Shown piece by piece: positions 1-53,998 of a stretch of 64,000 nt of DNA. The notes beneath the pieces are model-generated. The model did no database searches. It was not told the DNA's origin and saw only the letters and a list, made by a program, of their open reading frames with translations. Made by a program: the position numbers and the translations under genes. Source of the DNA: Convolutriloba macropyga (Eukaryota); assembly GCF_964194025.1 (NCBI RefSeq), contig NC_134471.1:45694001-45758000 (forward strand). The letters are read 5' to 3'. Each line of letters starts with the position of its first letter. Position 1 is the first letter of the stretch.

Positions 1-26
1 AATACTTAAATAGCATTGCAGCAGCG

Positions 27-1400
27 ATGATGTTTATTAGTGGCAAAGAACCCGTAAATAAACCAGGACATCACCAATGGAAAGTAAAAAGAGCAGCTTT
101 AATTTTACATACTTTACTAGGACCAGCTCAAAAGTGGTACTCCACTCTACCAAGTGAAACAAAACTGGATTGGGAAATATTCTGCAAAGAATTCTCAGAC
201 ATATTCGATTCAGAGAAATCAAAAAAACAAGCGAAAATAAAGTTACAACAACTACAGAAACATACGAATGAATCCCTACGATCATTAGCATTACGAATTG
301 GAACATTAGTAAAAACAGCATATTCACTCTATACAGAGGACTATAGAAATAGTGTAATGAACCAAACATTTATCAGATGCTTGGACAACGAAATAAAAAC
401 ATCAGCTTTGAAGAAACATGCAAACCATAAACAAACGCCCAGAGAACCAGAAATGCCATTCAAAACATTAGTCGATAAAATTGACCAGATGGACTTAACA
501 AGAACAATAACTAATAATCATAAAAGATTATATGAATTCAACCAAACTACGTCAAATAACAACGAAAATCTCAAACAAATGAACGCAGCTTGTAACAATA
601 TTAACGATCTAAACCAGAATGACCTGGAACAGTTTGAAGGAGCAATCTGTAACTTTCTTAACGGAATTAACAACACATATGATAGAAAAAACTTGGAAGA
701 CCGAAGTTTGCACTATTTTGCAGCTATTGCAGCTCTTATGGACACAAAAAAGGCAGATGCTTTAAAAGACCACGACGAGAAAGCATTACACGACCAAAAG
801 AAAAGTCATTCTATGGACACATGAGAAATAACCAGAAGCTACCAAATAGAAAAATTGATTCAAACAATGTTAATGAACAAGCACGAAGCAGAACAACATA
901 TAGATCACAATCACGAAATGGATACTGCAATAATCCCATTAGTAAATATAACAGAAATCAACAAGATTTCAGAAATTTTTACAGAAATAACAATGATAGA
1001 AGTGGCAGCTATAATAGAATCAATTATAATAGAAGTAGAACTAATAGCTACAATACAAACAGTAATTATAACAGATACGACAATAGTAGATCAAACTCGA
1101 GATATTCGAACCGTAGTTTTTCAAGACAAAATTCACCATACAACAGAAGTAATAACAATAACTACAACAACAATAAATATAACAGACAAAGAAACTTTCG
1201 CAGAGACTGAAACAGAAGTGATAGATATAGACAACGATCAAATAGTAACAATAGACATTATTCTTACAATAACAGAGACAATAGAACAAGTTCATCAAAT
1301 AGAGAACAAAACAATAGATACCAACCAAGAGATCGCAGTAAAGACGGAAACAGTTACAATAGCTACAATAAAAACAGAATAAACAACATAGAAGGACAAA
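27..1400 (+). pseudogene. gag: gag: capsid-like region, CCHC zinc knuckle and R/S/N/Y-rich nucleocapsid tail
   Basis: ORF 27-824 has gag-like segments (AQKWYSTLP..DWEIFCKEFSDIF, QTFIRCL). After a frameshift near 690, frame 2 reads CSYCSSYGHKKGRC (CX2CX4HX4C, 719-760) and runs into the RSNSRY-rich ORF 821-1210. The TGA at 1208 is a point stop; the frame continues beyond it. Confidence 0.9.
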
Positions 1401-1589
1401 CACAAAATGATGATCCACCTGGAATAGATGAGAACGAGTACTCATCAGAATCATCTAATGAAGACCAAGAAATATTAGATAAATTTTACAACGCAAACGA
1501 AGACACATGCAATACCGTAATAAATACACTAGAAAGCAACCATACCTGGATATTACCGATGTACCAATATAACAAACTAGAACAAGATT

Positions 1590-2921
1590 GTACTAAGCAG
1601 AAACCAATACTCGAAATCGATTTCCTATTATATTCTGGAGCAACATAGAACCTCTTGAACGAAGATACATGGAACGAGATAAAATACAACAACCCAGAAA
1701 TACAACTCGAAAAAGCTAACAAAACACTTACAGCAGCAAATAATATCACCATAGAAACATTCGGGACAGTAACACTTAATTTAACACCAGAACGAACGTC
1801 GAACAGCAGAAATAAACTTCAACAAAACTTTAATATCTATTTTTATATAACACAATGCAATCATAACATTCTGGGAACCCCGTTCTTCGAAGAATATATA
1901 GAAACCATTAATGTGAACACAAATAAACTAACAGTAAATAACTTTATAGATAACAATATTACTTTCTTTATGAACAGAACAAAAGGATATCCCTACTATT
2001 CTAGATTATACCCAATCTTCAATAGAGAACCAATGTACTTTGAGGAAAACCAGCACGAATGCATTACCTTTCCAATACCAATTGTCAATGAAATGGAACC
2101 ATCAAGTGGAAAAACATTTAATAAATCATTCTACTTTTTTGAACCGATAAACAGATACCAAAACTTATCATTCACAGATATAAAAGATCTCTCACTAGAA
2201 AAAGAACACTTTATCGACATATTTCTAATCAACAAAAATCAACATAAAATAACAATCAACACTGGATTACTCGGCTTTATATAACATTCTGGGAACCCCG
2301 TTCTTCGAAGAATATATAGAAACCATGAATGTGAACACAAATAAACTAACAGTAAATACCTTTATAGATAACCATATTACTTTCTTTATGAACAGAACAA
2401 AAGGATATCCCTACTATTCTAGATTATACCCAATCTTCAATAGAGAACCAATGTACTTTGAGGAAAACCAGCACGAATGCATTACCTTTCCAATACCAAT
2501 TGTCAATGAAATGGAACCATCAAGTGGAAAAACATTTAATAAATCATTCTACTTTTTTGAACCGATAAACAAATACCAAAACTTATCATTCACAGATATA
2601 AAAGATCTCTCACTAGAAAAAGAACACTTTATCGACATATTTCTAATCAACAAAAATCAACATAAAATAACAATCAACACTGGATTACTCGGCTTTATAT
2701 ATCAAAACATCACTTTTAGAAAGCACAACGAAGAAATGTACCAAACAAACTCAATAGACTTATTTGCAGTATTATACCATTTAATATACGAAAACGAAAA
2801 CGATATCAATGAAATTTTAAATATACAAGACAATGAAACAATTGAACAAGTCGCAACATTTGAAGGAAAACCTAATTTCAAATGCAAACTCAATATTAAC
2901 AAATGCACGGAAACAGAGTAA
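1590..2921 (+). pseudogene. Aspartic protease (inactivated) and PR-RT spacer
   Basis: IDFLLYSGAT*NLL at 1616-1657: catalytic DSG mutated to YSG, stop at 1646. The C-terminal ILGTPF motif is near 1868. Same frame as gag. Confidence 0.85.
1863..2698 (+). repeat. 418-bp tandem duplication inside pol
   Basis: ataacattctgggaacccc begins at both 1863 and 2281. The two copies differ by only about 4 substitutions. Confidence 0.95.
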
Positions 2922-2933
2922 GAATTCATCCAA

Positions 2934-4400
2934 ATGTTTGATTTTCAGCACCCATATTTAACACAAGAAGAATTGGAAAAAGTAGTATCAATCATATTAG
3001 AATACAAACAAGTTTACGCAACAACAAAGTTTTACGTCGGAAAAACTAAAGTAAAACTGAACCTACCAATGAAAAAAGATGCAATCTTTAAAAAACAAAG
3101 AATCACTAAAGTACCGATACAAATTCGAGAACAAATTCAAAAACTACTCGATGTATTAAAAAAATACGCCATAATTGCACCTGTCAATAAAGAAAAACTA
3201 TCAACGGGAAATATCTTCACAAACCCCGTAATAATACTACGAAAAAGAGAATCCTTAAAGATCGTATTGGACGCTCGATACTTGAATAGCATGATAGATG
3301 AATCCAAATGCAATTGGCCCATTGAACCTGTTGACGTGGCACTAACACGAATAAACGGAACAATATTTACAACAGCTGATCTCAATAGTGCGTACAACCA
3401 GATACCACTAGATGAACAATCAATGAGATACACTCATTTCACAATCGGCAATGAACAATATTGCTTGAAACGATTTTTTTATGCAATATCAATAGGACCT
3501 GCAGCCTTTGCATCAGTACTAACACACTCTCTTTACCCCTTAATCAGAAAAGGAACAGTAATCACCTATGTCGATGACATTTTTATCCAAACAAACTCGT
3601 ACGAACAGATGTATGAAACACTGATAGAATATCAAAAAAATACTATTGAAGAAAACCTTAAAGCAGCACCTGATAAAACGTATTTCATGCTAAAAAAAGT
3701 CAAATTTCTAGGACACATTATAGAAGACAAGAAAGTAAAACCACTAACTTCAAGAATTGATGGTTTCCAAAAACTGGAACCACCAACAAGTATGAAAGCA
3801 CTCCAAAGATACCTCGGAACAATAAACTTTCTTGCAAAATATATCTACGGCATGCAACCATTACTACAACCATTATATAACCTTCTACACAAAGAAAGTG
3901 ATTTCAAATGGACAAAAGAACATCAAACAATTTTCGAACAAATGAAAAGAACAAAAACACACAATTTAGAGTTAACAATGCCAGATACTACGAAACCCTT
4001 CTACATAGTAACAGATGCTTCGAATACAGGCATAGGCGCAGCATTACTACAACAACAACCAACTGAGAAGAAAATGAGATTATTCTCAGCGAATTCAAGA
4101 CTATTCACACCTATAGAAATGCGACTATCCACACTAATTCGAGAATGTTCAGCAATAATAGTCTCTCTAACAGAATATGAATTCTTGCTAACAGGCTAAA
4201 ACCATCCAATTGTATTATTTACTGATCACAAACCGATCATTTACCTCTTCACTCAGAAAAAAAAACCTAGCAATAGAGTCTACAGATTTCAACTCATTCT
4301 AATGAAATTTCCAAATTTACACATTGTTTGGACAGAGGGAAAAAACCTAGCACTCCCCGATCTTCTGAGTAGAACAATTGATGAAGAACATATTACTAAA
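2934..4400 (+). pseudogene. pol: Reverse transcriptase and RNase H
   Basis: VLDARYLN, DLNSAYNQI, ITYVDDIFI, VKFLGH, IVTDAS. After the stop at 4197 the frame continues with FTDHKP and LPDLLSR. Confidence 0.97.
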
Positions 4401-5109
4401 ACTCGTGATATAACAGTGGAAATACCAGAAAACATAGTTTTTCTTCGCGAAAACACCTTTTGCAAATAACCTAGAATGCAAATACAGCTTATGTAACAAC
4501 ACAAATGACACAAAAAGTCACAAAAAACACACCACCCAGTATTAGCAAACATACATAACATTTATTTCGAGATAAACATCGATAAAAACGAATATTGTCC
4601 AATTTCAATCGAAAAATACAATACCGAAACTAAAACCAATTTAGTACCAAAATATAAACCAAAAATAAAAAACTGGCAATCTCCAATAGTAGAAAAAAAC
4701 GATCTCATTATTGGGAAAAACCAAAAAGGACCCTATACAACACATCACGATAATGACTACCTAAGACTGATCAATAACATAAACTTAAAAACAAAACAAC
4801 AACAAAATTACGAAAACACGAAAATATCAGATATCTTCTGTGACGAAAAAACAAAAGTAACTGAAGAATTAATAAGAGAAACAAAAATATTAGATCTTGT
4901 ACTTCATAAAGTAAAAATGTGGAAAAAACATAACAATAAACCGCACTCAGTAACAATGGAAATACGTGGAAACAAAGGACTATTCCCATACTTTAGAAAG
5001 TTTAAATCAATAATAGTTGATGAACGATCTGGAATAATCAAAATAATCATAATCATACACAAAAAAATCGACACAAAGAATCTGTTTACCATTGACATTG
5101 GTACTCTGT

Positions 5110-6407
5110 AAATTCTATGAGAACCATTGCATTGACCTAGTAGGTCACACAGGCCTTGAAAAAACAAAACGTAAAATAATGGACAAAATACTGTTTTCCA
5201 AACCTCAATACTTGGCTAAAAATAATAATAGCTGATTGTATACAATGGCAAACAAACAAAGTGTTTGCCAATACGAGAACAAAAAGCAAACAAGAACAAT
5301 TAGCCACAACAAAAACATATTTCAACGAAATGATAATGGTCGACACAAAAGGACCAATCCACCCAACTTCTGAAGAAAAAAACTATATCTTCGTGATAGT
5401 TGATGCAATTTCACATTACGTAACGATAAGGTGTGCACCAAAAAATAACGCACATTACGCATTCACAGCATTATTCAAACATTGGTTCATGAAATTCGGA
5501 CTACTCGTAGAAATTAGATCGGATAACGGATCAGAATACATTAACACAGAAGTAACACACCTTTGTAACTATTTTGAAATCAAATTCAAACCCTGTACAA
5601 CCTATGAACCCTGGACCAACGGTCTAGTAGAAGGAACAATTAGAATAATTGGACAAATTGTTCGAACTTTATTACAGGATAAATACAATAATTGGTCACA
5701 GAAAGCAAAATTTTTCCCCTACGCATATAATACACAATACCAAACAAGATTAGGTATGTCACCATATAAAGTTGTTTTTAACCAAAAACAACGAAAGTCA
5801 ACAAAGATAAAACTTGGAACAACAACAGATGAGATGGGAAACTGCAACCCAACTGAAACAATTACATGTAACACACAACCAACACACACCCATTTAGAAA
5901 AACATTTTAGTCACCCAAAAATTGCAAACCTTCAGAAAGGAACATTTGCCAAATGGTTCCTAAACAAAGAAAAACACTACAATGAAACATATAAAACGAT
6001 AACCTAAATTCTACAAAACAGAAAAAAATTAACGGATAAAATAAATCTTAGATTCAGAACAGCAAAACCACTCGAGAAAAATACTTTTGCATTAGTAACA
6101 AATCAACAACAAGTTGATGGAGTTTATAAAAAAAACTTTTACCTCTAAAAACAGGACCTTATCTTATCATCGATAAGCCCACGGAAACAACATACATACT
6201 AAAAGATAACAATAAAGAACAAATAACAATACACGGAAATCACATTGTACCATACTACCCTAAAGAAAAACATATAAAGTTGGAACTACAAAACTATCTT
6301 CCTACAAAAAAAATACCAATATTGAAACAACCACACGAAAAAGTTAAACGAGAACGAGCAATACAACAATCAGATGAACCGAAAAATCATCAATATAATC
6401 TTCGCAA
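5110..6407 (+). pseudogene. Integrase (decayed HHCC region, DDE core, C-terminal region)
   Basis: H..GHTG near 5125-5155; CIQW (C2 mutated) near 5236; MVDTKGP, IRSDNGSEY, NGLVE, AYNT..LGMSPY. Ends in YNLR just before the gap. Confidence 0.95.
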
Positions 6408-6661
6408 NNNNNNNNNNNNNNNNNNNNNNNNNNNNNNNNNNNNNNNNNNNNNNNNNNNNNNNNNNNNNNNNNNNNNNNNNNNNNNNNNNNNNNNNNNNNN
6501 NNNNNNNNNNNNNNNNNNNNNNNNNNNNNNNNNNNNNNNNNNNNNNNNNNNNNNNNNNNNNNNNNNNNNNNNNNNNNNNNNNNNNNNNNNNNNNNNNNNN
6601 NNNNNNNNNNNNNNNNNNNNNNNNNNNNNNNNNNNNNNNNNNNNNNNNNNNNNNNNNNNNN
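6408..6661. other. Assembly gap
   Basis: Run of N. Confidence 1.
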
Positions 6662-9600
6662 AATAATGAGAAGAATAATAACTATAACAATAATCAGACT
6701 GACCTTAAATTGCTACATAATATAACACTATATAAATGCTTCATATTCTGATAATGTTCACCCAATATTATACTATAATACACCTATCCACAACTCGACT
6801 ACTATATTCAATACGGAACTAATTTCGAATACATCATCCTACTTTTAATCAATACTTTATCCTTTTGAAGCATCCAGTACTCTACTACTTTGTTAACATC
6901 CAGTATTCTATTACATACAGTACTTTATTACACTTGCACACTTCACTAACCCGAAAATTGTGTGCATACCTCCAGAATATTAGAAAAATAAAGTAAAAAG
7001 ACACATTATTGAATGAAAACATTAATATACAAATTGGAATACAAATGAAAACAAAAGCACATCAAAACTAAAAGGTGTTAACAACCACCTAACCTCTAAC
7101 CTCTATAATCTATGTCGACTAGCAACTATGTGAATAAGTACCAAGTTTATAAAACAAAATGTTACTAAACCATGTTACTAAACAATGTTCAATGAATAAC
7201 AGTTTAAAACAAACAAAATTTAATAGATTAACGATATGCATTAACACCTTCTAGTGAAACAAGATATAAAAACGATATTAATATAAACGAATACTACTCT
7301 TTCAACAATCAAATGACAAACTGAACTAACACCGTCTTCACCAACATTGTCCACCATCATCTTCCTCTTCCACTCTCTTCTTTCACCACCTTCACCAACA
7401 TTGTTCACCATCATCTTACTTATTCACCATCACCATCCATATTGCATAACAAATAAACAAATGACAACAAATTCAAATAACAAACCGAATCTCCAGACAG
7501 GATATACTAATACTAATAGGTTTTGATAGTAGCCCTTGGAATCACCACTAATGAATGGAAAAAAGGGTCTCATGTAAACAATGAAATCAAAACACAAAAT
7601 AATCAAAAAACAAATGGTATCATGTTGTTCACAAGCTTGGAACTGGAAGAGACATCATGAAATTGTCAACATTACAAACAATAAACAATCCATCAAACAA
7701 TTAAAACAATCTAACAACAAATAAAACCCAATAACCGTATGCCCTCACGTTCGAGGATTCACGGAATGGAATAGATACTTTGAAGAAGTTAAAGTTGCAA
7801 AAGAACAGTAAACAACGTACACACAAAAGTAAAATTGCAAACTAACAAGAGTAAATTCAATAACCGAGTAAACCCTGTTACAACAACAATTAGTAAAGAA
7901 CAAGGAAATAAATAATAAAACGGAAGTTAACACATAAAATATAAGACGAATAACCGTTTACGTGTAAATTCCTGTAGATAACTTCCTGTAGATAACAATT
8001 CAAGTAACAACGAAGTTCTGTAACCGTGAACAGTTATAACATACAAAGTGCTATATAAAACACACGCTATAATATAACTGTCGATTAGTTAGATCGTAAA
8101 GCAACCGTATAACGACGCCCATGTAAACGTAACAAGTCACGTATACATCCGCTAATATACATCTTTTCCACACATCTCTGCCAACTCACATCTCTAATTG
8201 ACACATAAATCCACTATCTAAAACACATACGATTTAACATGTTTTTATGACAGTTCACACCGTCTATGTCAGTTAACAAACCTATAATGACATTCTTCCA
8301 TGCATTCACCCATACAGACATTCTTACATGTATTCTAATACATAATAGTGGAAATGCATACCACCAGAAAACATTAATAACCATTCCAATAACAATATTG
8401 ATAACATCATTCTTAAATTACACAGTTCGTCTCATCGGTCGGACAACTTTCGACTACATAGATGGATTCGGCTATATGAACACTTGTACAAGAACTACAA
8501 GTGTACGTCATAAAATTTTGAATACGTCACAACCTCTATAAGTTATAAAACAAACGGACGTTAAATCCAAAGACTGACGTCATTATAAACCAACGGACGT
8601 CATCTCGAACCAATGCCATCACACTCATTAGTACCTCATTAGTACCTTCATTAGCAAAAGAAAACCGATGATCGAAAGTAACAAGGACCCATTAACAAAG
8701 CAAAAGAAATTGACACAAACAAGAAAAAGACAACCTGACAATCTTTTTATACCTTCATAGTTGAAGAGATTTAAGAACAAATTATAGGGACTTAGCATTT
8801 CCCTGCAAACGCAATTAGTAACAAAAAGATAATGTCATACCCATTAACAATTGCAACACCATGAACGAGATGGTGAGTACCATGATAGATCTGACGAAGA
8901 TCAATTAGCAGTTGAGGTTATCACTTCGATTGTACAAAAATCAATTTGAAGTTGACAAAACTATCGAATAACCAATTAACTTTTGCACCACACTACTTAG
9001 TAACAAATTACCTTCTCCATCAAGTTATTAGTAACAATCAAAGTTGACGCCACAAGACACCTATTGATTAACGGAAAACTTGAAAATAAATGTTAACGAG
9101 TAAATAGACAACATAATTAGACTAACTACCATAATCATACCATGACGAAAGCACGTCATTATACCATCAAACATACCAATTACAGGAGAAAAACAATCAC
9201 ATAACAAAGTTAAGGAAACTTCAAACGAATCGTGTAATTCTAAAACTTCGACACTCCAGAAACTAATTAGATCCCAAAAATTGTGAAATTATCAACTTCA
9301 AGAAACAAACAAGAAAAACGGAAGACATCTAAATGTCAGGAGAATTGTAAAAAGCAACAGAAAGTAAAACAGAAATTATTACAACGATTTTTGTCTCGTA
9401 CAGATCACTACCTCAGTAAAACTTGAATATTTTGAAAATCTCAGCTAAGCTGAAAACACAAAACAAAACTTGTTATACTCAGACAGAAAAATTTCATAAC
9501 TTCATTTCTAAAATAACATTCTTTCTGACTTGCCTCAGATTTTAATAACTTTCTAAAATTTTGATCCTCAATTCCATGGCCAACCTGTATTGTCACACTA

Positions 9601-9882
9601 CATTCAAACGAATTCAATTCATTTTGAAATTTTCTTTTCAGTAAAAACTCAAATCATTTCTATAAACCGATAAACCGATAAACTCCAATTTTTCAGACAG
9701 TTATAACAAATTTGTTTCTTTTGTCATCAACCATTCTCCACAAAACATTTCAACAACAAAAGATAAACCGAATTATTTCAATTTTATTTCTGAGAAACTA
9801 ATTCACCATTATAGCCTTCACTCTAATGAAGTACCACACATGCTTAGTGTATCACAGTTTATGCAATCACAGTTATTTGTTT

Positions 9883-10143
9883 CACAATTATTTGTTTATA
9901 TTGGAAGGTAAAACTGAAACTGGACAAGAAATAAAACTTTTTTGGTGAGAACAACATTTTGAATTACTCAAGAACACAGCACCTTGCACCGAAACAATTA
10001 CGGAATTTGAAACGCTGAAACAATTAATTAACACAGATAGGTGTGTTGATATAAACAAACTACATACAGTTTTTCTAGTAGTTTGCAAAAAAGAAGCTAT
10101 AGAATTGTTAGACGATAAACTAAAAGAAGAGAACCATACATGA
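9883..10143 (+). pseudogene. Remnant of an unknown accessory ORF
   Basis: Protein-like frame HNYLFILEGKTETGQEIKLFW*EQHFELLKN...DDKLKEENHT with one internal stop. No recognisable motif. Confidence 0.35.
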
Positions 10144-10690
10144 TACCTATTATAGTCATAGTTGTGTATCTATAGAAGCACAAGAACTTGCTAGTGCGGC
10201 ACCTTTACGTGTCAGTTACATTAGTAGATAACTGTCACTTTGCAGTGGAGCATTGTATACAAAACAAATTTTGCAAAACAATTTCACATTTAAATAAAGT
10301 TACGATATAACATACTATCACACACACGCACTTCCTACAAAACAATTAATACAAACAAAAACACAGTAATTTCAGTTTCAAAAATTTATTTCCCAGACGC
10401 ATTAATAGCAAGATACATACAATTATCTAAAATAATATTCTTCCTAACTATCTTTCTAGTACCCTGCATAGTTGTTATTTCTACGTACTTAGCAATAGTA
10501 ACAATAAACGAAGTTATCAGAAACCGTAGAGTTATCTATGCAAGTCCACCAGTACAATAATACAGTAACAACTAATGAACGAAATTCACACCGATATATA
10601 CCATATATGTAAAACCAATACAGATAATATAGAACTAGAAATTTTTAAATTCATTAAAGTTGCACTCCTAATTTATTTCTTCCTTCGCAT

Positions 10691-12126
10691 GTGTTTAGGT
10701 TTAATAGAATATTTCATGAACCTATAATAATTGATCCTATCTCAGATATAGAAGAATCAATATATTACAGGCTACACTACCAAAAATTCTATTTACAAAT
10801 AAGATTCCCTGAAAATTCACCATTACACGGCAGCGTTATTATTTATCAATTAAATCTTCGCCTAGAAAATAACGAAATTTGCATATATAATCTAGGAGCA
10901 CAAACACAGCCACCACAACAAGAACTTATACCACTAATAATACTAGCACCATCATACATTCAACTTCCCTCACACGGACCTAGTTCAGGAGCACGAATAT
11001 AATCCGCAAAAATTGCGTCATCAAACAATAACCATAGTAACAACAATAACAATCAAGAAAGACCACATCATAACGAAGTCACAGATTTAGCAAATATACC
11101 AACATCCCCGGAAGTAGATGATAATTTAAACCCAGGAAACGAAAATCCATACACTGTACGGCGAGACTGCCCCGAAAGAAGAGACCTCTTAAGAGCACGA
11201 CGTAGATCTTCTTTATCATTTCCAACACAAGATTCAACATTAGTTTCAGATGGTTCAACAGATATTGATTCCACCATAATTAGACCTATAGAAGCAGGAC
11301 AGTCAGAACCTCCAAGTAGAACTGGAACACCAACATTGCGCAAATTTAGTATAGGTTCACCAAGTGATAATTCGGCTTATAATACAATCAGAACACCAAC
11401 ACCATCCGAAATAAGAGCAAACCCCTTCTTACCACCTACATTCCAACAAAGACAAAACTTTAACTTTGTTCAAGAACAGTTCCGAGTACAACCACTACAG
11501 TCACCAAGTAGCTCACTCTTGTCAGCAACATCACCACAATCCGCAAGTACTAGCTCAACACCACGAAGAGCAAATCAAACTTCATCATCAAACACATCAG
11601 TAAGTATAGCAAGAGTCGATCTGACAGACTCCTTACAACCACCGAGGAATACAGCTTTATCCCCAGCGTCATTTATACCAGAAATAAGACTTCAATTAAG
11701 CCATCCTGGTAGAACACGATCAAGACCAATACTAAACCCAAACCCAACCACTCGAAGTAGGACTAATGAACACACATATCTTTTTGCATTAGATCACAAA
11801 AGTTGGAATCCACCACTACCACTATACGGACCCACTAATTTAGGAGACACACTTACAAACTGGTCACGAAATAGATTAATTAACACCCTTGAAGTCTTAG
11901 CAAATCCAAGTCTATAACTCAAATTTAACACTACAATAAAATACGACACTATCTTTAAACATCCATTTCATGCAACTACACCATCGATAATAACAACTAC
12001 GACCCAGCACCTTTTATTTGCACTGATTTTATATATAAAGTTGACAGATAGAAAAAACAAACATTAGGATTTGCAACATTCTATAATCCACACACCGGTT
12101 TATCAGATACATGTCGCTTCAGTTAA
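10691..12126 (+). pseudogene. Accessory ORF upstream of env: S/T/P-rich middle and conserved C-terminal domain
   Basis: ORFs 10691-11002 and 11336-11917 are in one frame. The C-terminus (GDTLTNWSRNRL..HATTPS..FICT..PHTGLS..C) is conserved in the inverted copy at 30951-31216. Confidence 0.7.
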
Positions 12127-13230
12127 AAGCCATAATACTAATATTGTTATTAATAATAACATACATTTACATGAATATAGAAACAAAAACACAATTAGAA
12201 CACAGACTAAATAACCGTGTTAAACAACGTATCAAGGATCGTATAAAAGAAAGAATGGCAGTACAGATAAAAAAATTTCTAAACAAAAACAAAGCAATAA
12301 ATACAAATACATTATACACATTCAACTAGGAGAAATTCAATAACCTTGAAAAACATATATTGAACAATAACACCAAATTTAAAACTAATCCACAATATTT
12401 CACCTATGACACCATAATAAAAGAACTAGAAGAGTTTAAAAACAGTTCAGACTACGAAGCAATGTGGGAAATAGCCATTCATAAATGGACACGAAATTGG
12501 AATTTCTATAGAGAACAATTAACAAACAGTATAATAGAGAAATTCAAGATGAACAATAAAAGACAAAAAAGACAAGCAAAAGTAGACTTTGTAGAACTAA
12601 CAGGACAAAACATTAATGGCTCTGCAACTGGACCACAAGACGTCTTCATAGAACATTACGATTGCGATGCAGAAGAAATTACTAATGTTAAGTATTATGA
12701 ACTAAACAAAATTAGTACATGTAAATTCAAACCACTCGATTTAGATTTGACAAAAACCGAAGTACAACTATTATCAAAAGCACAAGCAGTAGAAATAAAA
12801 GCGTACGCAGTTATTGGAACAATCAAAGAACGCGTGGAATGGTGTTCACAACACACTGATTATCTTAGAGCTAACATACCTAGTTATTACGTCTCAGATG
12901 CACGAAGAACAAAACTATTAGATGCAGATGAAGTTTGAAACGAACTCGCTAGAATTAACCTCCTAAAAACACAAAATATAAACCAACACGATATAATATT
13001 TCATTTAAATACATAGCAAACCCACCACTTCAGAAAAAGATCGAAGACATGCAAGGCAGAATACAATTTGAATTTGATACTCCTATTGTACCCGATGTGG
13101 ATACCAAATGAAATTTAAAATGCTTTGTCAAACTGCAAGAAAGGACCAAGAAAACAAAACAGAATAGATATACTAGATTAGACATTAGAAATAAAAGAAG
13201 TATCATTAATACTAAACTTGGACACTGAAG
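12111..13230 (+). pseudogene. env: Envelope glycoprotein, N-terminal part, class III fusogen-like (chuvirus/Monjiviricetes G-like)
   Basis: Hydrophobic N-terminus (AIILILLLIITYIY), furin-type RQKR, then HYDC..NVKYYELNKISTC..EVQLLS..IKERVEWCSQH. The spacing matches the remembered YDC..C..IQLLQ..R..YC..H pattern of chuvirus-type glycoproteins. Stops and a deletion are present. Confidence 0.7.
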
Positions 13231-13269
13231 AAACATCAAATATGGGAACAAGCACATTCGATCACCTAG

Positions 13270-13910
13270 TAGCAAAAGCATCTCAGGATCTCTCAGCATA
13301 TAGCGTATTTGAACACGAAATTTTCCAACTTAGTTTCAACTTTCTCCATTCCACTCCAAAAGATGTACATAACAATAACTTTCGTGTACATGAAAACAAA
13401 CTGATCCACAATATGATCTAGCACACCTTCTTCTTCAGAGATAAAGAGCCTTATACAGATAAAAGCTACATCTATATCAATGATCATTTAACATCCCCCT
13501 ACTTTCTGATTTATGGATATAAACTGAAATGGGAACACATCATTGGAACACTCCGAAATTTTGACCCCATAAATAATTATTACATCTTCCTACCTAAGGA
13601 TTCACCTGAAAAACCCTTGATGGTACCTCTCGAGGCACTTGAACGTTGCGAAGAGTACCATACATATCATTTAGAAGGAAGCGTAACAAACAGAGCTTTC
13701 AGTAACAGTACTCAATATAACAATGAACGAAAAGCAACAGATCTTGAAAAAGAGCTAAGGAAGACTGTAAAAGCTTCGATTACGGAAACAAAAATCAACG
13801 AAGTCACTGACCTGTTGGCGTACTTTCTCTCACATGATGAACATTTTGTAAAGGAGTATAAACATTACAGAAATCGGAATAGCCATCCTCAGCAAACAGA
13901 GAAATTGTAA
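13270..13910 (+). pseudogene. Accessory ORF remnant downstream of env
   Basis: Open frame from about 13488 to 13910 (LTSPYFLIYGYKLKWEHIIGTLRNFDP..PLMVPLEAL..), preceded by a frameshifted segment. Confidence 0.5.
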
Positions 13911-14959
13911 CACATGGAAAATTGGAACAAGTAACACATCTCGAACTTTAATAACAATGCCATTTCAATCATAACAGCTTCAATTAACAATGGATTTGAT
14001 TCTCTACATATACGTTTATCGTTTTCCTATATTGTACCAATTTGTAACAATACCATCTATAGCCATAAACGTTCCAAAATATACTACCCAAATCTCTTTG
14101 AACATGCTATTTCAATTACAGTTGAAATATCTTAACTGTTCCATTCCTGATCTGATTTGCTATATTAGTCTTAACTACAACACTGTCTTTAAGTATCACT
14201 GACACTTGATATAATACCTTGATATAACACTTAAACAATAATTGACTTCTTCAGAACAACAGTTTTTATTGTTTTTATTATTAATGTTCCTTTTTCTCCT
14301 AACCATTTTTTGCCTTCAGATATTAAATTGTACATGTACATATGCAAAGATTATCCATAGTTATATATATGCAATTTTGTAAATAAGAAATAAAGAAAAT
14401 ACAAAAAAGTACCTGATAATAATGTGTAAAATGGAACCGGATTTAAACAATAGCTTTATGCACTACAGTGTAGAATAACACACTATATGTAATGTTTAAC
14501 AGACATGTACAACGAACAGTATACATAACGTATACATAACACTACATAACACATTGGGTCATGACATGACAATTCTAACAGCTTCTGAGTAAGTGTTTAT
14601 AGTAACAAACTGTTGATATTTTGTTAATCAAACTAAAAATACGTCAAATAATTATATTGACACGTAGTCTACTAACAGTACAAAACAAAATATTCGAAGT
14701 CTATAACAACAGAAAAAACAAAAAGATTACTAATTCGAAAATTTCATATTACTATGATAGTCTACTAATTTATAACAACGACTTTTCATAGGTAAACCAA
14801 TTATAGACAAATGATTCATAGGTAAACATTCCACTGGATAAACAACCATGCAATTATAACAACATGAAGTTAACAACTATGAACCATCACATGCAATAGT
14901 CTAGCAATAGCATCATTCTTCTAACAGTAACAACGACCAAGTTCTTTCTTCCCGAGAGA

Positions 14960-16300
14960 ATTATTTGGAATGTTGAAATACATTATGTCGTATCCGGCGA
15001 ACAATTATAAAATAAGCGCGCAGACAGATACTTTTACTAAATTTAGAAGTATGAAATAACCACTAATAGGAATCAGGCGATGGGACATTTTTGTCCACAC
15101 ACATTAATCCTATAACCGTGTTCCAAAACCTTTACTAAATTTAAACAATACAGAAACCATTATCAAACTTACAACATTTACAGATTCGATAAACGCTTCG
15201 TATAACATAACCGTAACAACTAACAAAACCACAAAACTGTAGAAGTATGATGAAGCAGTCTGTACGGACTAAATTCATCAGAATAAATCATGAGTCCGGG
15301 AGACATTAATTGAAATAATACATGTTCTTATCCAATAACATAATCCAAAATGGCAGAAAAATCACAAGTCACTATACCGTTTGTTATGAAAAAAGGAAAT
15401 AACTTTTCGTTGTTGTCAACAACCTTCATGTTGTTACTCACCCAACTACACTCGATTTTTCCATCGAATTTCATATAACATTTAGAACAAAGGTTTTATT
15501 TTTTTTTACAACCGGAAGTGAAACTACGTAATAACAGAACATTAATACCGCCTAACATGATAGGCTAAATCGAAAAAATTCTGAACATCTAACAGCTAAC
15601 ATAAGCAAACAAAAAGAATTCAGGTAAGTCAGGTAAGTCACTGGACATCAGGATCGCCTTCGACATCAACATCGGGCCTACCCAAAAGGATCTTCATCCA
15701 CTGGAAGTGGTACTGGAATAGATACTTTTGTGGTTGTCGATGTTCACTCCTTGCTACGTGGGCAACCTATGTCTAGGAATTGACCGACTGACAAACCGGC
15801 GAAAGCGCAGCACACTCAACAAAAAGAAAAGAAATTCCTCCAAAGAGATTAAAGAGAAATTGAAAGTAGTACTCACAAAAACTTCTAAAAAACTTAAACC
15901 CCGGAAAAATGGAGTCAATGTTGACTTCCGACAAAGAAGATTTGAAGACTTTAATATTTAAATAAATAAAGACTGAAAATACTCTGGTTAAAATAGAAGA
16001 AATACCTTTCCTCCGATGCTTAACTAGTTTCCCTTACACACAACTGTTTAGTTGGTACCGATCAGAGTCATACACAAACCTGATATAATAATAAAGTATA
16101 TTTCTCTCTCTCTCTACTCCGCTCTTGTTTTGTATTGAGATATAAGTTAGACTTTAGCAATGGGGCCCGTGCACTGTCTACTGAAGCTCAGATAGAAGAG
16201 TAGCAGACTAGAGATATAGAACTTCAGTTAGTCAGGTAAGATACTATAAGACCTCAGTAGAGTAACCTCTCAGGGTAACCCTACTCGGGACACGTCTTAA
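14960..16300 (+). repeat. Putative 3' LTR-like terminal region
   Basis: Short purine run near 14954, AATAAA at 15961 and near 16090, a (CT)n tract and a terminal hairpin at 16256-16287. The last ~230 bp resemble the inverted remnant at 51567-55513. No 5' LTR is available for comparison. Confidence 0.35.
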
Positions 16301-17368
16301 TTGCTCTTGAACTAGTTATTCTCTATTAAATCGTTTTGTCATAACTGTATTATGGCCTGAATGCGCAGTGGTGAGTGCATTAGGTAATGTATCAGGAGGT
16401 CAATGGTTCGAATCTCAGCTGGGATCCCGTTTTTTCGACGTTTTTGTCTTAAATAAAATTAACGACAACTAACACGTATGGGCTTTGATTATTTTTGTCT
16501 CAGGATATCGATTAAAAAACGATGATTTCTTACAAGTGAAAAAAAAATTCCTTAACACTGGCTTGTATTGAGGTACAGCGACAAAAAACGACAATCGTTC
16601 CGTAGGAAATCGTCGTTTTTATCGTTTTGTTGCGGTTTCCGTCGTTTTAAGTGTTAGAAATGATCGTTTCTTCGTCGTTTTTTCGTCGTTTTTTTTTTTA
16701 TTTTTTTTGTCGTTTTTTTTATCAAATGAAATTGTTGTTTTTTGATCGTTTTCTTGTCGCTGTTTGTCGTCTCTTATGTCGTTTTTTTTTTCAAAACAAA
16801 TTGTCGTTTTTTGGTCTTTTTTTCGTAGTTTCATTGCACTTGAACTAAGTTTTCTCTATTAAATCATTTTAGCATATCTGTATTATGGCCTGATAACGCA
16901 GTGGTGAGTGCAGCAGGTAATGTATAGTGAGTTTAATTTTTTGAATATCAGCGGGGATCCCGTTTTTTGTCGTTTTTCTCTTACAAAAAACGATGAGAAA
17001 TGATCATTTCCTACATAAAAATAACGACGAAATAATGAACAAAACGACAACTACCACTTAAGGGCTTTGATCGTTTTCGTCTAACGACAACGATTGAAAA
17101 ACAACAATTTCTTTCAAGTAAAAAACGAAATTTTTCAACATAGGCCCGTGTTGAGGACAACGACGAAAAAACGACAACCTTTTTGTAAGCAATCGTCGTT
17201 TTTTTTTATTTGTCGTCGTTTACGTCGTTTTGGCGTGGTTTTCTTCGTTGTCATTAGTTTCTGTGTTTTAAGTCGTCTTTTAAGTTTTAGAAATGATTGT
17301 TCCTTCGTCGTTTTGTTTGTAATTGGTTACATCGTTTTTTCTTTTTTTTTCAAATGGAGTCGTCGTTA
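16300..17368 (+). repeat. Two monomers of the ~560-bp tRNA-like-cassette satellite
   Basis: Heads at 16354 and 16887 match those in the 31.2-45.5 kb array. Confidence 0.92.
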
Positions 17369-17369
17369 G

Positions 17370-19235
17370 GGAAAACCGTTGAAGGGGTAAAAGAAAAGAC
17401 TGGGTAACCAAATTTTGTGTTTCAGAAAGTAATTATTTTCATTCAGGTTTATAATGACAGAAGAGTTGTATGATGTATTTGACAAACTATCACAGAACAA
17501 GGCATCGGGTCCTGGATTCCTCCCAGCATGGTCATTCAAAAGTTGTAAATTGTCTATTGAAACACAGTTTTATTGTGCATTTAACAAATAGATTTCGACC
17601 AATTTTTTTTCCAGATGTCCTCAACAAAACATATGTAACTCCACTTCACAAAAAGGTGATCCACTTGATTCAATGAACTACAGGCCGTTTTCAGTGACAC
17701 CAAATCATGCTAAGAAATTTGAATGGTTTCTACTGCAACAAATATTGGAATGTTCATGTTGATGAACATAAGATAATAAAAAGAAAACAATTCGGATTTC
17801 TTAAAAATATAAAGTCAAATGACATTGTCATTTCATTAACGGAATCTATAAACCAACGTGTAGAACAAAACGAAACTGTTGTTGGACTTTTTTAGATTTA
17901 GCGAAAACGGTCAACTCAATTTCTCACAAAATCTTTCTTGAAAAAATTGCAAATTATGGATTCAGAATAGGATCTAAAACTATGCTGAAATCATTTCTAT
18001 CTAACAGAAAACAATGCGTTAACAACGGAATCATTTAGTCAATCTGGACAAAAAGTAAACACGGAGTTCCTCAAAGAAAAGTCATCGGGCCCCTGATTTC
18101 TTGTACTGTATATTAACGATTTCTCGGAAAAAATAAAACCAAGAAGTGTTAAAATTTGCAGATGATACATGTATAATATCTTACTCAAAAAAAATTAATG
18201 GCTTCAAACAAAAACCTCGAGCAATTTCAAAGAATTGATAATTATATGAAACAGAAGAAAAAACCGAGATAAATCCGAAATACTTGTTTTATCTTAAAAA
18301 GATCGACTGCCTTCTGAGGCATTTCATTATAATGGAAGTATCATAAAGTCGGTTGTAGTTGTCTGGGCGTAAAGACTGACAATAATTTGAAATTTGTCTT
18401 AGAACTAAACAAAACGATGATGAAAACGGAGACTGCTATTAGATCAATTTACTTGGTGAGACATCTTATACTGCTAAAACAAAAATTGTACTTTTCAAAT
18501 CACTTGTCTTGTCACATTTCAATTTTTCTCTAATCTCTGCAAGCCTCATCACTTCTGAGAAGAGAAAGACAAATAAATTGGTGTATAAAGGTTTGCCTTG
18601 TGCGTAAAAAGTTTGATAGCGCAAGGGATCCTCTAATAAGAGATAAAGTTTTTTTCTTTTAAAAATTTTTTAAATTTAACTAAGCGCTAAAAGGAAAGCA
18701 GTCAAATATCCAAGAAAAAGTTCATACAAGACTTTTGGAAAATATGAGATGAGATGAGAGAAAATTTCTGAACTGTATAGTTGTTTTCCCAAAAAAAATG
18801 TGCCAATCTTTATTAGTGACCAATTAATAGTCAGAAATTTCTCAAGAATGTGGAACAACTTGCCAAGAAAAATCCGGATAGAAAAAACCAAAAAACAAGT
18901 TTAAGAAGAAAACAACAAGAGAAATAATCAAATTACATGAACGTGTTCCAATAGATAGACAAGTACAAGTTTTTAGAAATTATTTTTACTAATATTTTAA
19001 GGACCAAAATTTCCATATGTTTTAAAGTTAGAATGATACTATTCTCACAAATCAACATTTCCCATGCTACCAAACCAATAACCTACAACGTTTCATTTTG
19101 TGCAGTGGCTCTACGTCGGCATCTTAATGAGAAGTCACATTTTAAATCCCTGTCAATAGCCAAACTTTTGGTGAAAGAAAAAAATGAGAAAACAAGCAAA
19201 ACACATTCGATAACTAAAATTTATAAATCAAATTA
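17370..19235 (+). mobile_element. 5'-truncated, decayed non-LTR retrotransposon (CR1/L2-like RT)
   Basis: Frameshifted motifs VTPLHKKGD..NYRP (~17636), QFGF, FLDL.K..NSISH (~17889), FLSNRKQCV, GVPQ..IGPL (~18063), YIND, FADDT (18155). Confidence 0.9.
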
Positions 19236-28037: not shown

Positions 28038-29958
28038 AATTACTTCCACGTAAAGGGCTTTGCGCTGATTATGAGCCACCTCCCATAGCCAAGGTTCTTA
28101 GCAGTTTCACGCAAAAATTTTTGATTTGTGATACTAAAAGTGCAACGACTTGAGTATGGAAGTAGAGTGCCACTAAGGAATTCGATTGTGCCAAATCAAT
28201 CTCCTGTTACGTGACATTTATGATAAATAAAAGAAAAGTAAATCAATCTTTTGTTGTGTTAGAGTAGTCTTTTGCATAGAATCCACTTTATATCCTGCCA
28301 GATAACAACCTTCGATGATAAACTGAGATCTTTTTTTGGATCTTGTTGGGGCGCAGTAATAACTAGTGTACTGTAGAAATGAAATGAAGTTTGACGGAAT
28401 GCATGATGAATTGCTAGAGTTAAGAATTGTCCCTAGTCGATGGTGGCAATTTCATATTCAATTTTGCCCTCACAAAATAACACGTTGTCGTTTGTTGGTA
28501 TTGTCAATGACAAAAGTTTTGTTGAAGGATTCTGGATATCATGAAATGAAACTAAGTCTGTCATTACTTATTCTCAGGGTACTAAAAATATGTGCAATCG
28601 TTTGTCTAACATGATTGGTATAGAGTTTAACAAGATTATACTGTTGGCACAAAAAACTGGGCGGAAACTCTTGACGTCAGCGTATAAATCTGATAACAAT
28701 AATGCTACTGTGTTGAAATTTAATTTTCATTGCTGATATGCAAAAAAGCATATCTGTACAATCTGGTAACATCCCAATGTTTTTTCGAAAGTATCGAATT
28801 GATCTTGGACTACCCCAGCATTTGTTTTCCCTCCTTTTCTTCACTTGTTCGCAGAGAGACATCGTTTGCATTCCATAATTTCTTTAAATTTGTAAGAAAT
28901 CAGTTTCTAAACTATTTAAATTCTTCTTCGTGAAGGGCTTTGGGCTCATTATGAGCCACATCTCATAGCCAAGGTTCTTAGCTGTTTCATGCAAAAATTT
29001 TTTTTGATTTGTGATACTAAGAGTGCAACGACTTGAGTATGGAAGTAGAGTGCCGCTAAGGGAGTCGATTGTGGCAAATCAGTCTCCTGTTTCGTGACCT
29101 ATGGGATAAATAAAAGAACACAGACAATTATAAAGCTTTTGTTGTGTTAGAGTAGTCTTTTGCATAGAATCCGGCTTATATCCTGCCAAATAAGGACCTT
29201 CGCTGATCAATTGAGGTCTTCTTTTGGATCTTGTTGGGGCGCTGTAATGACTAGTGTACTGCAGAAAAGAAAAAAAAATTGTCGGAAAGCAAGATGAATT
29301 GATAGAGTTAAGAATAATCCCTAATCAATGGTGGCATTTCATAATCAATTTTGCCGTCACAAAATGACATGTTGCCGTTGGTTGGTATTGCCAATGGCAA
29401 AAGGTTTATTGAGGGTTTCTGGATATCATGAACTGAAACTAAGTCTGCCATTAATTATTCTCAGGGTACTAAAAATATGGGCAATCGTTTTTCTAACATG
29501 ATTGGTATAGAGTTTAACAAGATTATACTGTTGGCACATAAAGCTGGGCGGCAATTCTTGACGTCAGCGTATAAATCTGATAACAATGATGCTACTGTGT
29601 TGGAATTTAGGTTTCCTTGTTGATTTGCAAAAAAGCATATTTGTACAATCTTGTAACATTCCAATATTTTTTCGAAACTATCGAATTGATCTGGAATTAC
29701 CCCAGCTTTTGTTTTCCCTCCATTTCTTCACTTGCTAGCAGAGAGATGTCGTTTACATTCCATCATTCCTTTAAATTTGTTGGAAATAGGTTTCTAAACT
29801 TTTTAAATTTTTTTCGTGAAGGGCTTTGCGCTCATTATGAGCCACATCCCATAGCCAAGATTCTTCGCGTTTCACGCAAAACCTTTTCTGGTTTGTGATA
29901 GTAAATGTGCAACGACTGGAGTATGGAAGTAGACTGCCGCTAAGGAAGTTGATTGAGC
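28038..29958 (-). repeat. Further ~890-bp F-like env repeat units
   Basis: Units start near 28038, 28922 and 29810. ORF 29461-29664 reads FANQQ..LLSDLYADVK..LLNSIPIMLEKRLPIFLVP. Confidence 0.8.
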
Positions 29959-29959
29959 T

Positions 29960-31216
29960 TCATAAGTCCAGTCAAGTATATCTACTCGATTTTGTTTTTA
30001 CGTTCTTTTAGACATTGTGATTGTGGATTGGTAGCTGCTGTAGGTATCCACGTGGGCTTAGTACAGTCATATACTATTCTCCCATATGCTGGTACCATAT
30101 GTGTATTAATGTTGAATTGAATTCTTCGTTGACCTTCTTCTAATCTTTTTGATAATTGAGGGTTATCTAAGTAATTAAATGAGATGTTATAGTTTGTTGG
30201 TTTGTATTTTGTATCTTGTATTAGGTTAATTATAGCAAGTTCGCTTCTTTGTTCATATGCGTCCAAGATTTTTATTCTTCGAGCGTCTCAAAGTAACTTG
30301 TTTTATAAGCTCTAACGTAGTCGGTGTGTTGTGAACACCATTCTACTCTTTCTTTTTTTGTTCATGTTACAGCAAAGGCTTTTATTTTAACTGCTCGTGC
30401 TTTAGATAATAATTGTACTTCAGTTTTTGTCATTTCTAGGTCTAATGGTTTAATTATACATGTACTGATTTTGTTTAGCTCGTAAAATTTGACGTTGCTG
30501 ATCTAATATGAATGTCTTGTGGTCCTGTTACAGAACCGTTTGCGTTTTGGCTTGTTAATTCTATTAAGTCTATAATTGTTTGTTGACGTTGTTATTTTCG
30601 GTTCAAGTAAAGTTTTGATAAAATACTATCGGTTAGTTTTTCTCGATAGACATTCCAATTATGTGTCCAATTGTCTATTGCTATATCCCACATTGCTTCA
30701 TAATCTGTATCATTTTTAATTACTTCAAGTTCTTTGACCTTGGTTTCGTGTTGAATTACTGGTTGTTTATAATTGGCTGTCATGTTTTTGCGCCGACTGT
30801 GGTCTTTTATGCGTTCTGTCATACAATAGTTTATACGGTCTTTTACACGTTCTTGAACATGTTTGTTTAATATGTTTTCTAATCTTACTTTTGTTTCTAC
30901 CTTGAAGTATATGTATAATATTGTTAGCGTTAAGATCAATATTATGGCTTTTAGTTGAAAAAACATTTGAACGATAATCCTGTGTGCGGAATAAAAAAGG
31001 ATGAAAATCCTAGTGCTTGCTTTGTGTATCTATCAAATTTATAGATGAATTTGGTACAAATAAATGGTGCTGGTGTGGTTGTTGTTATTACAGATGGTGT
31101 GGTGGCGTGGGATGGTGTCGCTAAAACGTTGAGTGCTGCGTTTCGCTGTCTTGTTGTCAGATTAAAAGTGTTAACTAATCTATTCCTTGACCAATTCGTT
31201 AATGTATCCCCTAAGT
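29960..31216 (-). pseudogene. env: Second, diverged copy of the accessory-ORF C-terminus plus class III-like env N-terminus
   Basis: MFFQLKAIILIL.., DYEAMWDIAI..W..NWN.YRE, TGPQD, NVKFYELNKISTC.IKPLDLEMTKTEVQLLSKA, ERVEWCSQHTDY all align with 12111-13200. Confidence 0.9.
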
Positions 31217-33103: not shown

Positions 33104-33108
33104 ATATA

Positions 33109-33152
<44 letters not shown>

Positions 33153-33158
33153 TATATA
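33104..33158. repeat. (TA)n microsatellite
   Basis: Visible dinucleotide run immediately upstream of a satellite head. Confidence 0.97.
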
Positions 33159-45100: not shown

Positions 45101-45374
45101 TAAGTCGTCTTTTATGTGTAAGAAAAGATCTTTTCTTTGTCGTTTTCTTGCAGTTCCTTACGTCGTTATTCTTTCATATGAAATCGTTGTTTTTGATCGT
45201 ATTTCCGTAGTTTCATTGCTCTTGAATAAGTTTTTTGTCTATTAAATCGGTTTAGCATATCTGTATTAAGAGCTGAGAGCGCAGTGGTGAGTGCATCAGG
45301 TAATGTATCGGGAGTTGAATGGTTCGAATCCCGACGGGGATCCCGTTTTATACAAGAAAATAACGATGAAAAAA

Positions 45375-45509
45375 CGGGTTTTTCCCATTATAGCCCCCCC
45401 CACCTTAGTGGTCAGATAATCTATAGCCCCCCCCCAATCATGGTAATTATAGCATAATGGGGAAGGGGCTTAATTTTTATGGGGGGGGGGCTATAATGGG
45501 GAAGAACCG
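45375..45509. mobile_element. 135-bp palindromic MITE-like insert in the last satellite unit
   Basis: cccattatagcccccccc ... ggggggggctataatggg inverted repeat. Confidence 0.7.
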
Positions 45510-51562: not shown

Positions 51563-51719
51563 CAGGTAAGACGTGACCTGATGAGCCCAATGGTCCTATG
51601 GCAAGTCTCATTTTTGTCAAGGTTACTTACGTAGATAACCGAATTGTAATTACCGGATGTAATCTCTTAGTCGTGGCTCTATGTTTCCCGGGCCGAGGTG
51701 TCAACGCTAAAAAACGCAA

Positions 51720-52960: not shown

Positions 52961-52974
52961 GAATTTTTTGAATT

Positions 52975-53720: not shown

Positions 53721-53998
53721 AAAACTTAAAAAAAATTTTAAATTTTTCTCGGTACTTCTCACATGATAAATGCGTTGAATACGTTGAAATTATGCAAGAT
53801 CTCAGCTAAATTCAACAAAAAATATGTAAAATCTAGGCTAAATTCAACGAAATATATGCAAGTTCTACGCTAAATTCAATGCAAAATATGTAAGGTCTAC
53901 GCCAAAATCAACGCAAAATATGTAAGATCTACGCAAAATTCAACGCAATATATGTAAGATCTACGCTTTATAAGGATTTCGGCTCTTAAGGAAACCAA

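Follow-up and report, generated by a model that had tools for sequence, protein, structure and literature searches.

Does the long tract that follows the integrase gene of a Gypsy element in Convolutriloba macropyga belong to that element, and how would the genes within it be expressed? The tract lies at the start of a 64,000-nucleotide stretch (NCBI RefSeq assembly GCF_964194025.1, contig NC_134471.1, positions 45,694,001 to 45,758,000, forward strand), hereafter the window, whose first letter is position 1; negative coordinates lie upstream of it. From the sequence alone, the original prediction had read positions 1-16,300 as one giant Gypsy element, over 16 kb long and possibly once infectious, with several virus-like genes in its 3' half. 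We found that window 1-16,299 is a single Ty3/gypsy long terminal repeat (LTR) element, namely an old and internally deleted member of a ~21-kb family with hundreds of copies. The additional open reading frames (ORFs) of this family form an ordered accessory cassette, and a mononegavirus-type env lies within their row. As judged from their start sites and splice-like signals, the cassette ORFs are probably expressed from spliced subgenomic RNAs, on which leaky scanning would let ribosomes bypass non-AUG starts and weak AUGs.

The 3' half is inherited together with pol

The outline of the window copy is given by the following features:

1..6407, + strand: gag-pol remnant, extending ~1.6 kb upstream of the window, with Retrotrans_gag, zinc knuckle, degenerate protease site, reverse transcriptase (YVDD), RNase H and integrase with GPY
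window -2,130..-1,721: 5' LTR of the window copy, 410 bp, 2.1 kb upstream of the window start
15910..16299, + strand: 3' LTR, 390 bp, ends TG...TA, with a CAG/GTAAG donor-like motif toward its 3' part
16300..16303, + strand: target-site duplication ATTG; the same 4-mer flanks the outer 5' end at window -2,832

The two LTRs share 84.6% identity. The 5' LTR for which the original prediction had proposed to look upstream is indeed present. The insertion point lies inside a unit of a 557-bp satellite, which picks up again where the element ends at 16,299. The strand bias noted earlier holds over the same range: the AT skew is positive and the GC skew negative in each kilobase of 1-16,000, and both reverse at 16-17 kb. 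Upstream of the 5' LTR (window -2,832..-2,131), ~20 bp of an LTR start is fused to 680 bp of 3' untranslated region (UTR) inside the target duplication, which is probably a collapsed tandem insertion with a common LTR. In all copies the LTRs end in TG...TA instead of TG...CA, with 4-bp target duplications.

Five young copies, picked for their long env frames, measure 20,359-21,355 bp, and their LTR pairs (434 bp) are 99.1-99.8% identical; a sixth, older copy spans 22.5 kb with LTRs 89.6% identical. By eye, 4-bp target duplications flank all six copies, five of them exact and one with a mismatch. The gene order in the young copies is gag-pol, ~3.1 kb without long ORFs, B, a micro-ORF, X, C, D1, D2, env, E and a 1.8-kb 3' UTR. 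In the window, a stretch of N (6,408-6,661) interrupts the sequence between pol and the 3' half; all six copies that were retrieved in full are colinear with it to either side of this gap.

The same order recurs across the family. All 15 B-anchored loci keep B-X-C-D1-D2-env-E, and eight of nine diverged loci, retrieved with a diverged env query and reaching down to 48-57% identity in B, keep B-X-C-D1-D2-env; the remaining locus is without X and C. We further read 10 kb downstream of pol in 20 copies, which were spread by hand down the ranking of 150 listed integrase matches and not drawn at random. B-X-C-D1-D2-env follow in order in 17 of them; the start of E is visible in nine of the 20, most of this ORF falling past the 10-kb stretch. 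Trees of integrase, B-D2 and env from 12 copies recover the same three main groups, with one copy changing its place, and the distances correlate at rho 0.82-0.90. The linkage of both halves across the gap, which the window itself does not reveal, is supported by the six colinear copies and by 17 of the 20 pol-anchored ones, and these 17 do carry ORFs that the original prediction had assigned to this pol.

Could the sequence past pol instead be a heap of nested or captured fragments, its extra ORFs being non-functional passengers? The window copy is broken, the extra ORFs match no family, a putative ORF A shows no clear selection (0.75), and in three of the 20 pol-anchored copies the cassette is largely or wholly missing. 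Set against these points, order and spacing are fixed across subfamilies down to 48-57% identity in B, the three trees agree, purifying selection is specific to the reading frame, and LTR pairs and target duplications enclose the whole element. Because the cassette accompanies pol in 17 of 20 copies, the 3' half is not nested debris; this explanation is largely refuted, and we give it next to no credence.

The 1.18-Gb genome, which a Wnt family match above the cut-off marks as that of an animal, holds 1,771 env candidates. Open env frames of at least 1,070 residues were found in 30 of the 150 matches listed, and open gag-pol frames of at least 2,500 residues hold 26 of the 150 integrase matches listed. 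Relatives of the window copy have been amplified recently. Many env matches bunch in one region of a few megabases per large contig, which suggests build-up in pericentromere-like regions.

Accessory ORFs under purifying selection

The four ORF remnants of the original prediction map by tblastn to conserved family genes: that at 9.9 kb to B, that at 10.7-12.1 kb to D1 plus D2, that at 12.1-13.2 kb to env residues 20-391, and that at 13.3-13.9 kb to E residues 322-542. The inventory was correct as far as it went, and it had overlooked ORFs X and C, an 11-codon micro-ORF and the fusion of env to E by a deletion. The cassette of the window copy reads as follows, with the ratio of nonsynonymous to synonymous substitution rates (dN/dS) computed against nine diverged copies:

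9768..10143, + strand: ORF B remnant, frameshifted here; about 160 amino acids (aa) in other copies; dN/dS 0.16 from the AUG
10140..10175, + strand: micro-ORF, 11 codons, hydrophobic, MIPxIVIVxY; its AUG overlaps the B stop in the window copy
10192..10254, + strand: hairpin, conserved in sequence, directly after the micro-ORF; z -4.4, -4.7 and -2.0 in three copies, -0.6 in the window
10384..10560, + strand: ORF X, 58 aa, a single long hydrophobic segment, no AUG, ATT/ATA onset; dN/dS 0.16
10575..10727, + strand: ORF C, 50 aa, hydrophobic at its C-terminus; most copies have a C at +4 of the AUG; dN/dS 0.04
10730..11002, + strand: ORF D1, about 88 aa; ATT onset two bases past the C stop; no AUG in the reference copy; dN/dS 0.15
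11012..12126, + strand: ORF D2, about 382 aa, rich in Ser/Thr/Pro, its C-terminal part conserved; ATT onset, no AUG; overlaps the env start; broken in the window; dN/dS 0.13
13248..13910, + strand: 3' part of ORF E, residues 322-542 of 542 aa; own AUG in other copies; fused to env by the deletion

The accessory ORFs are under purifying selection in their own frame only, with dN/dS of 0.04-0.16; when the longer ORFs are read in shifted sense frames, the ratio is 0.6-3.5 and stops are numerous. For ORF E, the proportion of nonsynonymous differences (pN) is 0.19 and that of synonymous differences (pS) 0.86; for the micro-ORF, which is kept in all 15 aligned copies, pN is 0.16 versus a pS of 0.84. 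The tblastn alignment of ORF B covers 9,771-10,116 of the window. Within the hairpin that follows the micro-ORF, the inner 10-bp helix pairs in 96% of cells, with zero two-sided changes. The similarity of the hairpin to mir-509/507 was not significant (27-28 bits in Rfam, against gathering scores of 64-79). Putative ORF A (49 aa) was dropped, with a dN/dS of 0.75 and its AUG missing from several copies.

Similarity searches revealed no match for the accessory proteins outside the family in Pfam, PHROGs and PDB (one PDB match, E 0.57, was disregarded), nor in the ESM Atlas for E and B. In protein databases, the best 120 of 256 matches for E and the best 120 of 226 for B are close relatives only; distant relatives of either could be hidden, since the lists comprise the best 120 matches.

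A mononegavirus-type env

Env is cut short in the window, where it appears as one piece:

12111..13250, + strand: 5' third of env, residues 20-391 of 1,138; PF24664 with E 2.8e-6 for the window piece

A deletion of ~3.47 kb at 13,251/13,257 fuses env residue ~391 to E residue ~322. Elsewhere env comprises 1,138-1,146 aa and starts 5,598 nt past pol, counted from the pol stop to the env AUG. It has an N-terminal hydrophobic segment, an RxKR furin-type site (RNKR at 150), 12 cysteines, 11 NxS/T sites, a transmembrane segment near 834-852 and a long tail, and its dN/dS is 0.11. A full-length copy matches the Pfam family Monjiviricetes_fusion (PF24664) with 52.7 bits, the cut-off being 27. Among 1.84 billion proteins, a profile search retrieved 501 matches, and all 13 distant full-length matches that were scanned carry PF24664, with 20-26% identity where aligned. 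No env relative was confirmed in viral or metagenome contigs. By sequence homology, the env family is a mononegavirus-type fusion glycoprotein, homologous to chuvirus/mononegavirus-type glycoproteins. It may correspond to the gB-like class III type, given that PMC13524379 describes chuvirus-like glycoproteins beside gypsy pol as gB-like.

The predicted cytoplasmic tail of env (L034:6306-9719, - strand) contains PPAY and PSAP motifs, of which gag-pol has none; we take them to resemble viral late domains. An intact env under purifying selection suggests that the family may once have been infectious, a possibility raised by the original prediction.

Start codons and splice-like signals

Conservation of the AUG-less ORFs begins at defined codons. 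All 25 copies of X have an ATT or ATA onset preceded by A at -3, and the onset of D1 and of D2 is ATT-G in 23 of 26 copies each (one mutated and two unresolved in either case). In ORF B, conservation sets in ~24 codons before the first AUG, at the CAGGTAAA-CTG motif, and the onset is NTG after AGGTAA in 24 of 25 copies, CTG in 21 of them. For comparison, gag-pol uses CTG for 11 of its 154 Leu codons, and the base rate of the A-NN-ATW-G pattern is 0.9% per codon.

AUG is also depleted across X, D1 and D2. Counted in any frame over five copy sets, its frequency is 0.09-0.19 per 100 nt in these ORFs against 1.3-2.0 in gag-pol, env and E, a roughly tenfold shortage that extends to synonymous positions. 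None of their 381-528 codons encodes Met (p 0.0004-0.009), NAT before G is avoided in the five copy sets (p 0.0001-0.07), and a shuffle test on three copies gave 4-5 AUGs observed against 13-15 expected. In the reference copy, only two AUGs occur in the final 1.46 kb ahead of env, and each opens a frame of eight codons.

Moreover, the LTR carries the CAG/GTAAG donor-like motif in five of five copies, and in the one copy read, no AUG occurs from a TATA-like motif to the LTR donors. Ahead of ORF E, an acceptor-like motif is found in eight of eight copies, with a conserved branch-point and TTTTAG. The lack of AUG in X, D1 and D2, their conserved AUU/AUA onsets, which stand in a strong context, and the depletion of AUG together suggest leaky scanning, and LTR-spliced RNAs combined with such scanning are favored because the LTR donor-like motif has no AUG before it and ORF E has a branch-point/acceptor-like motif.

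Two recoding routes were examined and rejected. For readthrough from D1 into D2, the stop differs among copies (TAA/TGA/TAG), and the spacer changes in length and carries extra stops; for a -1 frameshift from C into D1, there is no conserved slippery heptamer.

The phase of the splice-like signals brings up a different explanation, in which the AUG-less ORFs would be internal or terminal exons: B, X or D2 would be attached in phase 1, by alternative splicing, to a common exon that bears an AUG, or else the start would come from a trans-spliced leader. A phase-1 AG stands at the conservation onset of B, X and D2, and strong donor-like motifs occur in the LTR, ahead of B and in the 3' UTR. A precedent is the CERV protein of Cer1, which comes from a spliced mRNA (PMC10309623). 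What argues against such joining is that the LTR leader of the copy read offers no AUG ahead of the donors, that no strongly conserved phase-1 donor was found early in gag, and that D1 has no conserved AG. The base rate of a phase-1 YAG is moreover 5% per codon, and splicing alone does not predict the avoidance of out-of-frame AUGs across D2. We keep in-frame exon joining as an alternative, since phase-1 AGs directly precede B, X and D2, and consider it unlikely.

The non-coding regions on either side of the cassette raise yet another possibility:

6662..9759, + strand: tract from pol to ORF B that lacks long ORFs; its length in a young copy is about 3.1 kb
13911..15909, + strand: 3' UTR, about 1.8-2 kb, with conserved blocks, donor-like CAG/GTAAG motifs in tandem around 15,621-15,640 and, before the LTR, a short purine run of the GGAAAGA type

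Instead of LTR splicing, an internal promoter in the 3.1-kb region might furnish the RNAs of the cassette, whose ORFs would then be read via shunting or stop-start reinitiation. This region contains conserved non-coding blocks at about 7,061-7,104, 7,470-7,567, 7,745-7,816, 8,766-8,935 and 9,122-9,423, of which that at 8,766-8,935 is a hairpin cluster (z -3.5, -1.6 and -2.5 in three copies). Neighbouring ORFs of the cassette lie within 2-20 nt of each other, as would suit reinitiation. The short upstream ORF (uORF), the hairpin and the AUU/AUA start resemble the pararetroviral shunt layout (PMC5902531), and an internally promoted env has a precedent in some Oikopleura Tor elements (PMC4402516). 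By contrast, the promoter is putative, the short hairpin contains no AUG that would need bypassing and shows no covariation, and the LTR donors and the E acceptor speak for splicing. We regard an internal promoter as decidedly unlikely.

Several observations weigh against the proposed splicing and leaky scanning, or against other parts of the favored reading. Immediately ahead of B, a phase-1 AG is present in all 25 copies (with GT next in 24); the counts are 20 of 25 for X and 20 of 24 for D2. The B motif is also the second-best conserved donor-like site in our scan. D2 is of low complexity and poor in TpG, a composition that by itself lowers AUG counts, and one control set likewise avoids NAT-G (p 0.002). 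A scan from X to env is not free of AUG, since ORF C holds several. Two spacer controls gave dN/dS of 0.26-0.34 in one frame (one being the upstream extension of B, the other containing 44 stops), and for this reason a dN/dS near 0.3 counts as no evidence. As the compared copies share ancestry, the counts and p-values do not represent independent events. Of the three pol-anchored exceptions, two are devoid of the cassette, and the third retains B together with a portion of X. Env has no sequence match in PDB. Finally, every step of expression is inferred. Four runs of unrecorded kind (contigs, one study) span the cassette with no informative splice joint, and carry weight neither way.

Proposed expression of the cassette

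We propose that the full-length RNA would yield one Gag-Pol polyprotein and that reverse transcription would be primed by a tRNA at the primer-binding site (PBS). The donor-like sites of the 5' LTR would splice to acceptors ahead of B, X, D2 and E. On the resulting RNAs, some ribosomes would initiate at the CUG of B or at the AUU/AUA of X, D1 and D2, and the remainder would continue to the AUG that opens C or env. Such leaky scanning would leave the accessory proteins scarce and Env abundant. By analogy with other systems, Env might permit spread from cell to cell, for instance from soma to germline; the small membrane proteins X, C and micro might aid assembly or release, and B, D1, D2 and E might act in RNA export or in evasion of host defence.

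Two short elements adjoin the LTRs. A conserved motif starting with TGG, the putative PBS, lies 2 nt past the 5' LTR; its cognate tRNA was not found using one guessed pattern. The purine run before the 3' LTR is ~7 nt long (GGAAAGA), conserved, and follows a run of C; for Metaviridae, the international virus taxonomy committee ICTV describes a polypurine tract of ~10 A/G ahead of the 3' LTR (PMC7879559).

Other features of the element and the window

The window gag-pol is interrupted by stops and frameshifts, whereas many other copies have a single frame of ~2,560 aa. Ahead of the capsid-like domain, ~580 aa of Gag (L026:3499-5238) have no match in Pfam or PHROGs. One feature of pol is confined to the window copy:

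1863..2704, + strand: tandem duplication of ~420 bp (1,863-2,286 / 2,281-2,704), 98.8% identity

In the 3' UTR, a strongly conserved block (window 15,690-15,960) follows the tandem donor-like motifs ahead of the 3' LTR. It could encode a short basic Cys-containing peptide (PCxxGNxC...KKK), whose frame varies among subfamilies. The motif GGAATAGATA is conserved twice, at window 7,766 in the post-pol region and at 15,715 in the 3' UTR.

A second and more diverged fragment of the family lies at window 29,941-31,217 on the - strand; it comprises the D2 C-terminus and env residues 1-377, with ~72% DNA identity to the first copy. The satellite has units of 530-600 bp, mostly 557 bp, and occupies window 16,297-17,340 and about 31,200-45,470 as well as sequence upstream of the window. 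A segment of its unit looks tRNA-like, and ARAGORN calls no tRNA there. Upstream of the window, pieces of satellite and LTR make up a ~2-kb block that is itself duplicated (L021, about 3,180-7,170). Window 17,400-18,960 has by eye the look of a decayed non-LTR reverse transcriptase, and window 51,700-53,900 consists of a 129-bp tandem repeat that includes inverted copies.

Comparison with known elements

By its anatomy of two LTRs and gag followed by protease, reverse transcriptase, RNase H and integrase, the element fits Metaviridae, and it has the Errantivirus feature of an env downstream of integrase. According to ICTV, Metaviridae carry one to three genes (PMC7879559). Env-bearing Gypsy elements with gB-type glycoproteins, the "ancient errantiviruses" of Chary & Hayashi, are widespread in animals (PMC13524379), and env alone is for that reason not new; the novelty appears to be the accessory cassette together with its apparent translation strategy.

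The errantiviruses with HSV/gB-type env share with the present family a Gypsy gag-pol followed by a chuvirus/mononegavirus-like glycoprotein with signal/transmembrane segment, furin-type site and transmembrane segment, as well as multiple, recently amplified copies (PMC13524379). The present family differs in its layout, since it occupies 21 kb, with five to six ORFs between pol and env (a distance of 5.6 kb) and another past env, whereas that survey, the largest of env-bearing Gypsy elements, selected compact forms of three ORFs. Its filters allowed a gap of up to 1 kb between pol and env and a region of up to 10 kb, with env sought 3-5 kb downstream in some groups, and would mostly leave out a 21-kb element. 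Two short motifs of the element were absent from the supplements of PMC13524379, which is a weak test.

The planarian giant Gypsy Burro resembles our family in its giant size, thousands of copies, mononegavirus-fusion-related env and accessory coding capacity (PMC6431247). In Burro, which is larger, however, env and the apoptosis/ubiquitin domains lie in frame within a polyprotein of ~4,900 aa between gag and pol, whereas env and the extra genes of our family are separate ORFs after pol, in which apoptosis/ubiquitin domains were not detected. The same source reports foamy-like fish endogenous retroviruses (ERVs) of up to 17 kb with accessory ORFs (PMC6431247).

Together with complex retroviruses, these ERVs share with our family several accessory ORFs around env, small membrane proteins ahead of env and a splice donor in the LTR. 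The vpu/env layout of HIV offers a parallel for small membrane ORFs ahead of env. Unlike in complex retroviruses, the reverse transcriptase here is far closer to that of Ty3, the best PDB match of a relative's polyprotein being Ty3 Gag-Pol (E 7e-49), compared to 4e-22 for foamy and about 1e-7 for lentiviral (HIV) reverse transcriptase; in addition, env is not retroviral, and gag lies in one frame with pol.

In rice tungro bacilliform virus (RTBV), an AUU start is combined with a weak AUG and with 900 nt that contain no internal AUG (PMC5902531). RTBV and badnaviruses share with the cassette an AUU start, a weak AUG, a long AUG-free run before a major gene, and a short uORF with a hairpin. RTBV differs in being a plant pararetrovirus without LTRs or env that scans its pregenomic RNA toward a polyprotein, and its strategy has been demonstrated by experiment, whereas that of the cassette is inferred (PMC5902531). 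The RTBV-type signature of a near-cognate start and AUG-depleted upstream ORFs is present here at the sequence level only.

C. elegans Cer1 (PMC10309623) and the bdelloid LTR elements with ORF3 (PMC5408684) are LTR elements of invertebrates whose extra protein is regulatory or of a non-env kind. Cer1 has one spliced regulator and the bdelloid elements a single ORF3, compared to an ordered cassette of six to seven ORFs here. A search of full-text literature, with subscription papers, Repbase/Dfam and bioRxiv supplements outside its reach, revealed no Gypsy element with such an accessory cassette.

Altogether, we tentatively suggest, with somewhat less than even confidence in the whole, that the family is a recently active, env-bearing "complex" animal endogenous retrovirus of the Gypsy lineage. 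It would possess six to seven accessory genes under selection, arranged as an ordered cassette and without detected relatives outside the family, would use splicing and CUG/AUU leaky scanning in convergence on complex retroviruses and plant pararetroviruses, and would have been missed by size-filtered surveys. If this is true, the step from a simple to a complex retrovirus-like genome was also taken in the Gypsy lineage, and such elements may have been systematically overlooked, since their length is too great and AUG is absent from their ORFs. The recently amplifying family supplies uncharacterised proteins and RNA elements under selection, and with host RNA data, the origin of accessory genes and non-AUG translation in retroelements would become testable questions.

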